A stretch of 52,196 bases of DNA, from contig PEYM01000002.1 in assembly GCA_002774365.1 (NCBI GenBank), positions 1-52,196 of the forward strand. Direction: 5' to 3'. The DNA comes from Candidatus Saganbacteria bacterium CG08_land_8_20_14_0_20_45_16 (GTDB taxonomy: Bacteria > Margulisbacteria > WOR-1 > O2-12-FULL-45-9). The stretch's first letter is position 1, and every line of letters begins with the position of its first letter. The notes beneath the pieces were generated by a model. It was given only the letters and a program-made list of their open reading frames with translations. It made no database searches and had not been told where the DNA came from. Both the position numbers and the translations under genes were made by a program. Below, piece after piece: positions 6,655 through 50,271 of this stretch.

Positions 6655-7908
6655 ATGAAGTTTTCGCAATTGGTGGCGCCAACGCTTCGAGAAGACCCTG
6701 CAGAGGCCGAGATTGTATCCCACAAATTATTACTTCGCGCGGGTTTTATTCGCAAACTGGCTACCGGCGTCTACACTTACTTACCCCTTGGTTTAAAAGT
6801 CTTAAATAATGTTACCCGGGTTGTTCGCGAAGAAATGGACCGTGCTGGAGCCCAAGAAATCTTTATGCCGGTTCTGCAGCCAGCTGAGCTCTGGCAGGAG
6901 ACTGGCCGTTGGAAACAGTATGGTAAAGAACTTTTTCGGATCAAAGACCGACACGAGCGCGATTTTTGCCTGGGCCCAACGCACGAAGAGGTCATTACTG
7001 ACCTAGTTAAAAATTCAATCAATTCATACCGTAGTTTGCCGGTCACTCTTTATCAAATCCAGACCAAATTTCGTGATGAGATCCGCCCGCGTTTTGGCTT
7101 AATGCGCGGCCGTGAATTTATGATGAAGGATGCTTACAGTTTCCACCCTAATGAAGCTGATCTTGACCGTGAATATCAAAATATGCACCAGACCTATTGT
7201 CGGATTTTTGAGCGCTTGGGCCTGAAGTTTAGGGTAGTTGAAGCGGCGGCTGGTTTGATTGGCGGCGGTTATTCCCAAGAGTTTATGGTCTTGGCCGAAA
7301 CAGGCGAAGATGAGATTTTTTGCTGCCAGGCTTGTGATTACGCGGCCAGTCGCGAGTTGCTCGAGGCTAATGTTTGCCCCAAGTGTGGGAGCAGCAAATA
7401 TGAGCTGATCCGCGGGATTGAGGTTGGCCATATTTTTAAGCTCGGCACTAAGTATTCTTCAAAAATGAAGTGTGTTTATGTTGATGAGAACAATCAAGAA
7501 CAGCCAATGGTCATGGGCTGCTACGGGATTGGGGTGGCCAGAACAGCTCAAGCTGCGATTGAGCAGAACCATGATAAAGATGGCATTATTTGGCCCATGC
7601 CCCTAGCGCCTTATAAAATAGCCGTAGTTCCTGTAAACATTGAGGAAACTGAGCAGCGGGAAGTGGCGGAAAAATTGTATAGGGCGATGAGCGGTGAGGG
7701 GGGCGGGGTGAGCGTGCTTTTTGACGATCGAGACAAGCGGATTGGGGCCAAGCTCAAAGATATTGATCTGATTGGGATCCCGATCAAAGTGATTGTTGGT
7801 CCCAAAGGTTTAAAAGAGGGTAAGGTTGAGGTTAAGTGGCGCCGCGACGGCAAAACCGAGCTGGTCGCCAAGGAAAAGGTAGTGGAATGGTTAGCACAAT
7901 CCCTTTAG
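6655..7908 (+). CDS. proS: prolyl-tRNA synthetase (short form without INS editing domain)
   Basis: [58 protein letters not shown] motifs. Confidence 0.97.
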
Positions 7909-9299
7909 ACGATAAACCCAAAGAGGCTTGCGGGGTCTACGGTATTTTTTCTTTTAATGGCGAGCCTTTGGCCAAGTTGGTTTATTACGGGCTTTATGCT
8001 TTGCAGCACCGTGGCCAAGAATCAGCTGGTATTTACACCTCAAATGGCCAACAGCTTCAAGGGAAGGTTGGCATGGGCTTGGTCAACATGATCTTTAATG
8101 AGGAAAACCTTAAAGAGCTCAAAGGCAATATTGCTTTGGGCCATGTTCGCTACTCCACTACGGGTTCTTCGATTCTAGCTAATGCTCAGCCAGTGGTGAT
8201 GACCACCAAATACGGGCCAATTGCCTTGGTTCACAATGGCAATCTTATTAATACCGCGGATTTGCGGGCAGAACTGCCTAACCATAAATGGCAGAGCACA
8301 AATGATACAGAGGTTATTGCCGCCCACATTGCGAACTCCAGCGCACCCAACCTTCAGGCAGCGATCATTGAGACATTAAACAAATGTCGAGGCGCGTTTT
8401 CGCTGGGAATTATGAGCCTAGACACGCTTTTTGCGGTGCGTGATCCGCATGGTATTAGGCCGTTATCTGTTGGCAAGCTCAAAGATGCTTATGTGATTGC
8501 CTCGGAAACCTGCGCGCTTGATGTGGTGGGCGCTGAATTTGTGCGTGATGTATCGGCCGGCGAATTGGTCATTATTAATAAAGATGGCTTGCAGTCCAAG
8601 ACTTGGGCCAGGGGCGTGGACGAGGCTTTGTGTGTTTTTGAGTTTATTTATTTTGCCAGGCCAGACAGTGTGATTAATGGCCGCAGTTTTCATGATGTTA
8701 GGGTTAACTTGGGTAAGTACCTGGCCAAAGAGCAGTCGGTTGACGCTGAAATGGTTATTGCTGTGCCTGATTCTGGCATTCCCGCAGCTATTGGCTTTGC
8801 TAAGGAATCAGGGATTCCTTTTACCGAAGGGTTGATTAAAAACCGCTACATTGGCCGGACTTTTATCCAGCCAACCCAAGCCATGAGGGAAATTGGAGTG
8901 CGTATGAAATTAAACCCGATCAGGGACTCTGTGCGCGGGAAAAAGCTGGTGCTGATCGATGATTCAATTGTCAGAGGCACGACCTCAAGGCAGATCGTCA
9001 GGCTCTTGCGGGAAAATGGGGCCAGGGAAGTCCATGTGCGGGTCTCTTCTCCGCCAATTATGTACCCTTGTTTTTACGGTATTGATACGTCGACCCGGGC
9101 AGAATTGATTGCGGCCAACTTATCGATTGAAGGGATCAGAAAATACATTGAGGCTGATAGCTTAGGTTATTTATCGCTCAGGAGCTTAGCCAAAGCTATT
9201 AACTTGCCTAGGGATCGGTTATGCATGGCGTGTCTTAATGGTGATTATCCAGTGAAGCTGCCAGAGAAATTAGAGAGCTTAAAGTTATTTTTTGAATAA
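7887..9299 (+). CDS. purF: amidophosphoribosyltransferase
   Basis: Propeptide then [25 protein letters not shown] and [12 protein letters not shown] 7887 is the likely start. Confidence 0.97.
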
Positions 9300-9308
9300 G
9301 AAGGGGAG

Positions 9309-9515
9309 GTGAAAAAAATGGAAAATTGCAGTTCTTTCCCAAAATGCACTCAATGTGACAAGGGGCAAATGTTGCCGCTGTCTGATTTTTCCAATAATTC
9401 GGTTGCGATCAGATATAAAGCGTGGGCCTGTACCAACAGGGAGTGCCGTTTCTTTGTTGTCCTTAGAGGTGGAGATGTTTATTACGGTACCGCAACGTCA
9501 GAAGCAGCCAGATAA
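9309..9515 (+). CDS. small putative zinc-ribbon protein
   Basis: CTQC...CTNREC cysteine pairs, SD GGGAGG, position inside the pur operon. Confidence 0.65.
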   Translation: MKKMENCSSFPKCTQCDKGQMLPLSDFSNNSVAIRYKAWACTNRECRFFVVLRGGDVYYGTATSEAAR

Positions 9516-9546
9516 GTTTTAAGTTTAACTAGGAGGGTTGAGAGAT

Positions 9547-48800: not shown

Positions 48801-48827
48801 TTATCGCCATGGTTTTGGGAAATTTCA
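48801..48827 (-). promoter_or_regulatory. sigma-28-like motif TGAAATTT-N11-GGCGATAA
   Basis: Minus strand reads TGAAATTT CCCAAAACCAT GGCGATAA, followed by GTG 48794. Confidence 0.6.
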
Positions 48828-48874
48828 GTTCAATTGAGCGCTATTTTATGTTAAAATAATTTTTCTAGATCAAT

Positions 48875-50233
48875 ATGGTAAAGGAGAAAGAGAAAATGGC
48901 AAGAACAAGTACCCGGACGAGCAAGAAATCAGCAGAAAAATATGTCCCATTACAAAGGAGCAAAGGCAAAATGGTTAATTGCGATATCAAGGATAAAAAT
49001 TTAGCCCCCAAAGGAAAACTCCGGATCGAGTGGGCAGAGCGCGATATGCCGGTCTTAGCCCAAGTTAAAGAAAAGTTTACCAAGAGCCAAATCCTTAAAG
49101 GGATCAAGATGAGCGCCTGCTTGCACGTTACGGCTGAGACTGCAAATTTGGTTAGGACCTTAAAAGATGGGGGAGCCGACATTGTCCTGTGTGCTTCTAA
49201 TCCGCTTTCAACCCAAGATGATGTGGCTGCTTCCTTGGTTTATGACTATGGAATTCAGGTCTTTGCCATCAAGGGTGAGGATAACGATACATATTATAAG
49301 CACTTAATTACGGCTGTTGAGCATTCTCCAGCTGTAACCATGGACGATGGCTGCGACCTGGTTTCTGCGATTACTTCCAAGTATCCTAACCTGGCCAAAA
49401 ATATTATTGGCAGCATGGAAGAGACGACCACTGGTGTTATCCGGCTCAAGGCCATGGAAAAAGACGGGGTCTTGAAATTCCCGGTTATTGCTGTTAATGA
49501 TGCTCAAACCAAGAATTTATTTGATAACCGCTATGGTACTGGCCAAAGCACAGTTGATGGTATTATTCGGGCCACTGATTTTTTGATTGCTGGTAAAAAC
49601 ATAGTGGCGGCTGGCTATGGTTGGTGCGGTAAGGGCTTTGCCATGCGTTGTAAGGGGATGGGGGCTAATGTAATTGTGACAGAGATTGATCCGGTTAAAG
49701 CGATTGAAGCGGCCATGGATGGTTTTCGGGTTATGACTATGGCTGAAGCAGCGCCCATTGGCGACCTTTTTTGTACTCTGACTGGGGATATGCACGTCGT
49801 TAGGCCTGAGCATTTTGAAAAAATGAAGGATGGCGCGATTGTTTGTAACTCTGGCCATTTTGATATTGAGATTGATATTAAAGGCTTAAAAAAAATTGCC
49901 CAAAAAGAGAATAAAAATGTCCGTAATTTTGTTGATCAGTTTGTTTTATCGAGCGGCAAGAGTATTTATCTTTTGGCAGAAGGAAGATTGGTTAATCTTG
50001 GCGCAGCCGAAGGGCATCCTGCTTCAGTTATGGACATGAGCTTTTCTACTCAAGCCCTGGCCACTGAATATGTCATAAAAAATGCTGGCAAATTAGGGCC
50101 AAAAGTTTATAATGTTCCTCAAGAGATTGAGAACTGGGTAGCAACGCTAAAACTTAAATCAATGGGGATAACAATTGACAAATTAACGCCAGAGCAAGAA
50201 AAGTATTTAACTAGTTGGCAAGAGGGAACCTAA
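48875..50233 (+). CDS. ahcY: adenosylhomocysteinase
   Basis: [22 protein letters not shown] and NLGAAEGHP motifs. The start could be 48896 or 48971. Confidence 0.97.
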
Positions 50234-50236
50234 GAT

Positions 50237-50271
50237 AAATGTCAAATGACAAATTACAAATGACAAATGAA
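50237..50271 (+). repeat. heptamer array (AAATGAC x5) forming the gene start
   Basis: Encodes MSNDKLQMTNE. Confidence 0.85.

Follow-up and report, generated by a model that had tools for sequence, protein, structure and literature searches.

The 52,196-nt contig PEYM01000002.1 (C7 in our numbering) of Candidatus Saganbacteria bacterium CG08_land_8_20_14_0_20_45_16 (GCA_002774365.1), analysed here over its whole length as the window, carries short tandem arrays of 7- or 8-nt units inside its protein-coding genes, and similar arrays are dispersed through the host genome. Our best explanation is that these are heptanucleotide (in some cases octanucleotide) repeats of the type known as short tandemly repeated repetitive (STRR) sequences and that they characterise the class Saganbacteria as a whole. 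Judged from the sequence, they are dispersed patches that lie in frame inside conserved genes at permissive sites. Regarding their origin, we lean towards template switching or serial slippage that draws in part on arrays at other loci, with selection acting on the products. The host is a metagenome-assembled genome (MAG) of 1.78 Mb in 148 contigs that is 95% complete; the DNA is present in public groundwater and aquifer metagenome runs, and the nearest public ileS loci (61–74% identity) are from MAGs assigned to Candidatus Saganbacteria, candidate division WOR-1 or Margulisiibacteriota.

To call arrays, we used Tandem Repeats Finder (TRF), with a score of ≥30 in the window; gene calls were based on open reading frames (ORFs), orthologues were drawn from two to six relatives, and the null model was a ten-fold shuffling of codons within ORFs that left intergenic DNA unshuffled. 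Genome-wide, TRF returned 214 rows of period 7, of which 150 had at least three copies and 90 at least four; the corresponding numbers were 79, 45 and 19 for period 6, 88, 33 and 9 for period 8, and 72, 6 and 2 for period 10. At a score of ≥40, 82 period-7 arrays were observed compared to a codon-shuffled mean of 10.3, i.e. an approximately eight-fold excess, and this null residue of 10.3 arises because the intergenic arrays had been left in place. Period 8 showed a smaller excess (17 vs 2.1), period 11 gave 10 vs 5.9, and there was no excess at period 5 (1 vs 1.0) or period 10 (6 vs 5.2). Period-7 arrays far outnumber every other non-codon period in the genome, and a comparison proposed in an initial annotation of the window, made from the sequence alone, namely that periods 7 and 8 should be commoner than periods 5, 10 and 11, came out as anticipated. 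The null is high at low scores, with 67 period-7 rows in the shuffled genome at ≥30 and 19 at ≥36, and about 19 of the 125 period-7 arrays with a score of ≥36 are expected from it; weak arrays such as that in the GT9 gene (score 36) are, therefore, individually untrustworthy. Because the comparison at ≥30 alone was too noisy, it was dropped and score thresholds were used instead. The 14- and 21-nt TRF rows of the window overlap 7-nt arrays, and the units are 7 or 8 nt, which is not divisible by three. Since such a period gives the same cyclic peptide in any frame, the earlier proposal that the repeats arise at the DNA level holds. An Rfam search of the window matched no family.

Among the 150 period-7 arrays with at least three copies, 122 fall in stop-to-stop frames of at least 100 codons, and 57 of the 82 arrays with a score of ≥40 lie well inside frames of at least 150 codons, spread over 47 ORFs. 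We compared these 82 arrays with orthologues from one whole relative genome (G016), part of a second (G013) and four syntenic pieces: 48 have conserved orthologous protein flanks, 21 lie in an ORF without aligned flanks (14 of these within the first 65 codons of the frame), 5 are in ORFs for which no orthologue was found, and 8 are outside any ORF of at least 80 codons. The arrays are direct tandem repeats of 20–61 nt without a palindromic element of fixed length, and their ends are marked only by family-specific 3′ tails. The commonest length class among the 48 arrays in coding sequences is 30–31 nt, or 4.3–4.4 copies (17/48), and many arrays have decayed to 70–85% matches. Adenine exceeds thymine on the sense strand in 41 and falls below it in 7 of 51 arrays with conserved flanks. 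S, R, N, T and K are enriched and A, Y, M and F scarce in the encoded peptides, whose hydrophobic fraction is 0.295 vs 0.407 in the host proteins. All array-bearing ORFs of the window are intact, confirming that the reading frame is preserved, and in cassettes of the unit AAATGAC the in-frame TGA is changed to TTA, TGT or TGC, which indicates that the cassette is translated. That the arrays are in frame and in essential genes argues against phase-variable switching. A second population is found at gene starts, where AAATGAC supplies the ATG, and as inverted pairs around genes for four-helix-bundle proteins.

The gene for isoleucyl-tRNA synthetase (ileS) provided a natural experiment on lineage and turnover. 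We counted period-7 arrays with a score of ≥36 at ileS loci; the locus sets partly overlap and the genomes are kin, and the counts are, therefore, descriptive rather than independent tests. In public genomes, 14 Saganbacterial loci had 24 arrays, 22 of them inside the coding sequence, and on metagenome contigs 16 loci, some of them near-duplicates, had 23, all inside. Loci from the same order (6 loci) had 11 arrays, all inside, and those from the same class (9 loci) had 9, with two arrays listed twice and 8 inside. The 14 loci (73 kb) from other classes of the phylum had no array. In other phyla, 28 arrays at 65 loci in public genomes and 7 at 57 loci on metagenome contigs were detected, none of which was inside the coding sequence. 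Rather, many of these lie directly behind the ileS stop codon in up to 14 copies and never within the gene, as in loci L033, L039, L050, L054, L058, L059, L062 and L064 from MAGs of Desulfobacterota and Acidobacteriota. We conclude that heptamer arrays as such are widespread and that their presence within ileS marks the class Saganbacteria.

Within IleS, the four arrays of the window and a weak fifth coincide with indel-prone positions and fall in non-helix, non-strand stretches of an AlphaFold model (mean predicted local distance difference test score (pLDDT) of 85.5; 25-row alignment). The 10-residue pLDDT means at the array sites are 60–73 and residues 229–233 are below 50; according to the model, every array-bearing site would be a low-confidence loop. 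Turnover at these loops is extensive. The window and its closest relative, L221 (82% identity), have different inserts at every IleS site examined, and L226 and L222 are 78% identical overall and ~90% identical, as counted on the alignment, outside three loops that are unrelated in sequence; at site 2, the basal state (NV|GDE) is seen in L222 and a perfect AAATGTC x5 array in L226. Because the GTAACCA array of site 4 is common to the window and L009 (72% identity), some arrays persist. The relatives have different heptamers at the same positions; the earlier suggestion that the repeats write new peptide loops into essential proteins is supported, in that loops of proteins such as IleS contain lineage-specific peptides. 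A second type of small in-frame insert, the hairpin-like CCTGCGAC-TGAA/TAAAC-GTCGCGG, which codes for ...KPATERRG.../...LRLNVAA..., occupies loops that take heptamers in other sequences (site 2 of L221, L008 and G016; site 3 of L005). Separately, a 1-nt frameshift within the RFLLSNL region interrupts the ileS of a complete single-contig relative (L332; G045:C1, ~1738550-1738580); we rejected this as an effect of an array because the frameshift is not at one, and either a sequencing error or a genuine lesion may underlie it.

It had also been claimed that the arrays are generally insertions; according to the alignments, many of them instead replace native loop sequence with zero or small change in length. 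Compared to G016 and G013, the mode of the net length difference is 0 to +2 residues, but we dropped this as a measure of insertion because both genomes bear inserts of their own at the same loops. In IleS, the outgroups provide a better reference. At site 2, at least eight lineages are 8–10 residues longer than a 12-residue basal state that is also found in outgroups. The region after the SPSI(Y/F)VKF motif has 25 residues in 26 of 27 sequences, outgroups included, and most Saganbacterial sequences have an array there that starts at the native AAATTY of K-F; sites 3 and 4 of the window are within one residue of the outgroups in length. The check for gapless alignment to orthologues proposed in the initial annotation was likewise divided: the GT9, LpxB-like and three ileS sites align without gaps, whereas the ArnT-like gene (+9 residues), prmC (+2) and ileS site 2 (+8) are longer. 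L226 has an ileS site with four extra units (28 nt) and one base missing at the junction. In the whole genome, 7 of 11 perfect period-7 arrays have 2.9–3.9 copies and all four perfect period-8 arrays have 2.6–3.6 copies. Whole-unit slippage can add only 21 or 42 nt in frame and, therefore, does not fit changes of +24, +27, +30 or 0 nt; lengths other than whole units require either a single complex event, in which the copying strand leaves, copies and returns at a microhomology, or later compensating changes.

Two features bear on where the units come from. On the one hand, the first unit at IleS site 2 coincides with the codons of native dipeptides (KS/AAATCC, NV/AATGTC, EV/GAAGTA). On the other hand, the 125 arrays fall into only 68 unit families compared to 116 on average, and never fewer than 105, when genomic heptamers were drawn at random 1000 times, and the largest families, AATATCG (12 members) and AAATGAC (11), exceed the null maximum of 6. 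A network of families joined by one mismatch was uninformative, collapsing to one giant component. The recurring units come with recurring ends. All five AAATCCG arrays, one of them intergenic, end in ...CCGAA followed by CAAGG, CAATG or CATGG, and four of the five are exactly 30 nt long in an identical codon phase (KSEIRNPKSE). AATATCG arrays have a CGTCCCAA-like tail in 8–10 of 13 cases, and AAAATCG arrays end in AGGAAAT. AAATGAC arrays form a stereotyped 34-nt cassette followed by (A/T)GGTA, with the GGTA tail in 5 of 7, and this cassette is the source of the start codon of at least seven genes including DUF5665 (M[TS]N[DV]K[LC]QM[TS]N[ED]G...).

Two further sets of dispersed repeats were observed. 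An 8-mer family (CAAGGCAT/CCTTGATG/AAGGCTTC) at C19:2797-2832, C60:12192-12220, C48:23169-23205 and C38:9141-9161 codes in four proteins for basic stretches of the KASRHQG type ahead of hydrophobic, signal-peptide-like segments. A three-copy element (C33:19830-19920, C48:3020-3100, C126:14030-14110) consists, in this order, of AGCAAGGTTATTGCCAG, an (AACTGAC/AACTAAC) array and a CGCTCGCTCC-like stretch, and could be a miniature mobile element or encode a small non-coding RNA.

The initial annotation had named a link between heptamer arrays and four-helix-bundle genes, and this link is confirmed in the genome. Five genes of the PF05635/TIGR02436 family are present (Table 1), none of them in the window, and no array of the window adjoins such a gene. 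Heptamer-like arrays flank all five, with left and right flanks inverted; a lag-7 score of ≥17 within 260 nt is reached by three of the five, compared to 2.5% of random positions (binomial tail 1.6e-4). Array-loop-array palindromes occur at the right flanks of the C118 gene and the left flank of the C88 gene, and the C118 flank unit with its tail (AATATCG + CGTYCCAA) belongs to the AATATCG family and is found at 11 other places, some inside genes. The protein family was detected in 25 of 25 relatives searched (1–15 matches each) and in 1 of 14 control genomes. In G013, inverted arrays surround two of three such genes examined, and the three genes of G016 have weak flanking periodicity. GxxExxY genes, also named earlier as candidates, were not found: a search of the genome with PF13366 (GxxExxY/PDDEXK_3) gave no match. 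At a contig edge and ahead of a methylenetetrahydrofolate reductase gene, C72:1-1065 (locus L303:82-1065) contains an ORF whose first 50 residues correspond to the C-terminal half of Avd, a protein of diversity-generating retroelements (DGRs), followed by a reverse-transcriptase domain; it is probably a DGR cut by the assembly. Of note, the association of four-helix-bundle genes with arrays is no demonstration that these genes make arrays.

At the arrays at 39013, 42957, 45995, 48270 and 50237, assembled contigs (Logan) of four further sequencing runs, in which rare variants are dropped, show no difference from the window. The AAATCCG array 46698-46727 is a point where Logan contigs of other runs break off, and within the array-bearing bins 42670-43136, 46406-46872 and 50142-50608 the summed depth goes up 5- to 25-fold, indicating that other organisms in the same aquifer samples share the repeat units.

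How might the arrays be written? From the observed repeats, their excess, location, lineage restriction, turnover, native-codon seeding and recurrent unit families with tails, we infer a template switch for which other arrays serve as donors. Specifically, template switching or serial slippage would write patches of ~20–35 nt into the DNA; each event would begin on a few native bases, often AAAT-containing codons (K-F, K-S, N-V), copying would often proceed from arrays elsewhere in the genome, and a return at another microhomology would lengthen or overwrite the loop. Selection would then retain patches that hold the frame, lack a stop, lie in surface loops or termini and encode a hydrophilic peptide, and the survivors would be translated as fast-evolving loop peptides of housekeeping proteins. 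The first units are native codons, yet units and tails recur, supporting microhomology-seeded copying that is partly from other arrays. The uncharacterised mechanism invoked in the initial annotation was itself conjecture, and ordinary template switching or slippage together with selection can account for most observations. Several considerations weigh against copying between loci. A single event and its donor were not reconstructed from the relatives compared, none of which are strain-level before/after pairs; with 68 families for 125 arrays, approximately half of the families have no more than two members, which fits a purely local origin; tails such as GGT or GG could in part stem from native residues (G-S at ileS site 4) or from a selected preference for glycine where a loop ends; selection on loop length, and not the mechanism, may be the reason why length is preserved; and no hypervariability or indel was seen at five arrays in the assembled contigs of four runs.

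Such a local origin is the essence of plain slippage in place: copies of a native heptamer would be added one at a time, 7 nt being favoured by the polymerase footprint, and in-frame outcomes would be selected without copying between loci. Heptamers are the commonest long simple sequence repeats (SSRs) in many bacteria, with polymerase slippage proposed as their origin (Mrazek 2007 as summarised in PMC4679880); first units coincide with native codons, many units are confined to one locus, and the commonest length class of 4.3–4.4 copies equals a seed plus three units. Nevertheless, we consider this account unlikely because the net changes are +24, +27, +30 or 0 nt and never 21 or 42, the perfect arrays with fewer than four copies (7/11 at period 7, 4/4 at period 8) imply out-of-frame additions, single-unit intermediates would be lethal in ileS, and unit families and tails recur far above chance. 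Alternatively, the arrays could be ends or targets of small mobile cassettes around the Avd-like TIGR02436/PF05635 genes, with solo in-gene arrays as one-ended or gene-less copies, possibly made via RNA and reverse transcriptase. The inverted arrays at all five genes (three passing the lag-7 score), their counterparts at two of three genes in G013, the presence of the family in 25/25 relatives vs 1/14 controls, the 11 further places of the C118 flank unit and the DGR-like locus at a contig edge speak in favour of such a dedicated system. It is nonetheless doubtful: no catalytic domain is known in the four-helix-bundle protein, the commonest families (AAATGAC, AAATCCG, AAATTCG) have no adjoining four-helix-bundle gene in this 95%-complete assembly, periodicity around the three genes of G016 is only weak, a GxxExxY/PDDEXK_3 gene is lacking by PF13366, no link between the reverse transcriptase and arrays was seen, and heptamer arrays occur in other phyla too.

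A function of their own, with periodicity selected for as binding sites of RNA- or DNA-binding factors, as translation-start modules or as flexible linkers, is conceivable though we would not expect it to be the general explanation. In its favour, two thirds (14/21) of the arrays whose flanks could not be aligned are among the first 65 codons of their frame, and the AAATGAC cassette, with a stop and a start in every frame, gives the ATG to at least seven genes and resembles the TAACTGA repeats just upstream of start codons in Beggiatoaceae (PMC4679880); the CAAGGCAT arrays that precede signal-like segments in four genes also fit. Against it, internal arrays differ wholly between close relatives at the same loop, both strands are used, and arrays decay. 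Chance, codon-level periodicity or assembly artefact can be set aside almost entirely. The GT9 and proS stretches are weak and the shuffled genome also yields many rows at scores of 30–36, but the eight-fold excess at ≥40, the existence of perfect arrays, and the occurrence of the phenomenon in dozens of independently assembled MAGs and metagenome contigs, with contigs of four runs identical to the window, lead us to reject these explanations for the strong arrays. Finally, we considered a far-reaching variant, which we rate as a long shot, in which a self-propagating repeat-writing process in Saganbacteria, possibly guided by the expanded family of Avd-like four-helix-bundle proteins, would overwrite ~30 nt of loop-coding DNA with copies of heptamer arrays present at other loci, in many cases leaving the length as it was. 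If true, repeat-writing would be a gene-conversion-like templated mutagenesis that constantly remakes the surface loops of housekeeping proteins.

Among known systems, the palindromic elements of Rickettsia and the small dispersed repeats of Nostoc, the latter reportedly described by Elhai in 2008, are small, selfish-looking pieces of DNA that lie in frame in housekeeping genes at permissive surface sites; these elements and repeats are palindromic or fixed in sequence and 21–150 nt long, whereas the arrays described here are tandem 7-mer patches. Borg repeats resemble the arrays in being tandem DNA repeats that add new peptide stretches, but Borg units inside genes are reportedly divisible by three, unlike the 7- and 8-nt units here. 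The phylum of the Saganbacterial host is a sibling of Cyanobacteria, and the unit CCCCAGT, present twice in the genome, is presumably STRR1 of cyanobacteria. Borg repeats, from an archaeal extrachromosomal element, evolve fast, arise independently and create disordered protein regions (PMC9879509). Calothrix PCC 7601 has three tandemly repeated heptanucleotides (PMC4692102). Like the STRRs of Calothrix and Nostoc, the Saganbacterial arrays consist of tandem 7-nt units in many dispersed short arrays with a small recurring repertoire; unlike these mainly intergenic repeats, they are mostly in frame inside genes (57/82 well inside long ORFs), AAAT-type units dominate, and the host is a non-photosynthetic groundwater Saganbacterium.

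Heptanucleotides are the most abundant class of long SSRs in the survey by Mrazek (2007), for which slippage was proposed and in which the units in coding regions were multiples of three (via PMC4679880 and PMC4692102); the present arrays are alike in heptamer units but have 7- and 8-nt units within coding regions. The GGGNATC repeats of Xanthomonas and Nostoc (Rehm et al. 2015; PMC4692102) are G-rich, quadruplex-forming, over-represented intergenically and under-represented in coding regions; the present arrays share with them the genome-wide occurrence of heptamers and the marked preference for approximately four units and differ in their A-rich units and location inside ORFs. The TAACTGA repeats of Beggiatoaceae, Cyanobacteria and Bacteroidetes (MacGregor 2015; PMC4679880) occur in 2–6 copies just upstream of start codons and have stops in all frames in one orientation, and a few reverse copies lie within ORFs near protein ends; short heptamer arrays at gene starts and the related unit CAACTGA/AACTNAC are present here too, but in place of a single dominant, nearly always intergenic unit there are dozens of units, in the cores of conserved enzymes. 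Thus, heptamer over-representation as such is already known in many bacteria; for in-gene arrays of Saganbacteria, class-wide as they are, no description was found in the literature searched, which covered few subscription journals.

Genes would be expected to lose repeats whose unit is not divisible by three, and in this case an entire bacterial class tolerates such repeats, or continues to generate them, in enzyme loops. The arrays offer a natural system to study the origin of short templated DNA patches and how much arbitrary peptide a conserved protein absorbs, as well as whether the poorly understood four-helix-bundle proteins (of the 23S rRNA intervening-sequence or Avd-like type) act on repeat DNA or RNA. 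In practical terms, they break assemblies and distort marker-gene alignments and trees in this lineage.

The arrays of the window are listed in Table 1. Of the 16 arrays in the initial annotation, TRF recovered 13, the exceptions being the proS stretch, the first stretch in the OMP gene and one of the five ileS arrays. The gene names were supported by Pfam for purH, prmC, GT9, the ArnT/PMT_2-like and LpxB-like genes, ileS and DUF5665; 'proS' was identified only as a class II aminoacyl-tRNA synthetase (aaRS), and 'OMP' (ORF 15843-17150; putative outer-membrane protein) had no match in the Pfam search.

Table 1 Arrays and weak stretches of the window, and four-helix-bundle genes elsewhere in the genome (SAM, S-adenosylmethionine; aa, amino acids)
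Gene or site	Position	Strand	Unit and copies	Context	Basis
class II aaRS ('proS')	7684..7711	+	very weak GxGGTGA periodicity	excluded from arrays	TRF score <30
purH	14208..14268	+	AAAACTC x8.7 (alternatively 21-mer x3.2)	Lys-rich N-terminal tail, aa 5-25	TRF, Pfam AICARFT_IMPCHas
OMP-like ORF	15861-15900	+	weakly periodic		by eye; absent from TRF report
OMP-like ORF	15916..15948	+	GACATCG x4.7	N-terminal extension / signal-peptide region	TRF
OMP-like ORF	15962..15979 (array region extends to 15984)	+	ATTTTTA x2.6		TRF
prmC	19093..19123	-	8-mer GTAGTRCC x3.6	aa 212-222, net +2 aa vs orthologues	TRF, alignment
prmC	19452..19484	-	CGATATT (AATATCG family) x4.7	variable loop directly before SAM-binding DIGTGSG motif	TRF
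GT9 heptosyltransferase	26233..26264	+	GGGATTA x4.6	76% matches, score 36; probably not a real array	TRF
ArnT/PMT_2-like glycosyltransferase	39015..39043	-	8-mer CAAGCWAC-like x3.6	within +9 aa insertion vs G001, G011	TRF
LpxB-like	42957..42990	-	AAATGTC (TTTGACA) x4.9		TRF
ileS site 1	45995..46016	+	AAATTCG x3.1	loop aa 43-50, length varies in relatives; pLDDT 72-73	
ileS VKF site	46524..46559	+	weak AAGGGTC-like	aa 220-231, behind conserved VKF motif	not in TRF
ileS site 2	46698..46727	+	AAATCCG x4.3	beta-hairpin loop aa 278-287, net +8 aa	
ileS site 3	47954..47978	+	perfect CGAGCCA x3.6	loop aa 696-704, no net length change vs outgroups	
ileS site 4	48270..48299	+	GTAACCA x4.3	loop aa 802-811, length as outgroup L021	
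DUF5665 gene start	50237..50270	+	AAATGAC-type cassette x4.9	between ahcY stop (50233) and DUF5665	
four-helix-bundle gene	C118:380-1120				
four-helix-bundle gene	C9:5950-6620				
four-helix-bundle gene	C87:27950-28420				
four-helix-bundle gene	C88:16400-17100				
four-helix-bundle gene	C4:13100-13780				

The arrays had been placed inside proteins; this holds for the IleS loops, but that of DUF5665 begins 2 nt ahead of the ATG, and those of OMP and purH are in N-terminal extensions. A basic N-terminal tail, variable in form and length, is present at the array position of PurH in 23 of 23 relatives. For the OMP-like ORF, orthologues begin later or bear other heptamers (AAATGAC in G001, AACATCA in G019). 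In PrmC, the loop ahead of DIGTGSG varies in length, G019 having a different heptamer-like insert there, and the 8-mer family GTAGTRCC recurs in another gene (contig C135, 13515). In the LpxB-like gene the loop is overwritten with its length unchanged relative to G001 and G016, and the 3′ unit of the array falls on native K-F/C-Q codons. The first unit at ileS site 2 corresponds to the native K-S codons, with the tail CAAGG. The DUF5665 gene owes its ATG (50239) and its first 11 codons (MSNDKLQMTNE) to the cassette, behind which lies the tail GGTAAACT. Predicted array-encoded peptides include KSEILNPKSE and MSNDKLQMTNEGK. Two entries of the initial annotation are weak or due to chance, namely those in GT9 and proS; the GT9 peptide is conserved and aligns without gaps to G011, and the GGGATTA stretch is, from this alignment, probably not a real array.

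Two minor observations concern the ends of the window. The ORF of the class II aaRS (6655-7908), as listed, overlaps a purF-like ORF (GTG at 7836) by 73 nt, and the true start of the latter is probably further downstream. Near the contig end, a hexamer array, (AGTGTG) x5.5, is located at 51855-51888 directly 3′ of an ORF ending at 51852.

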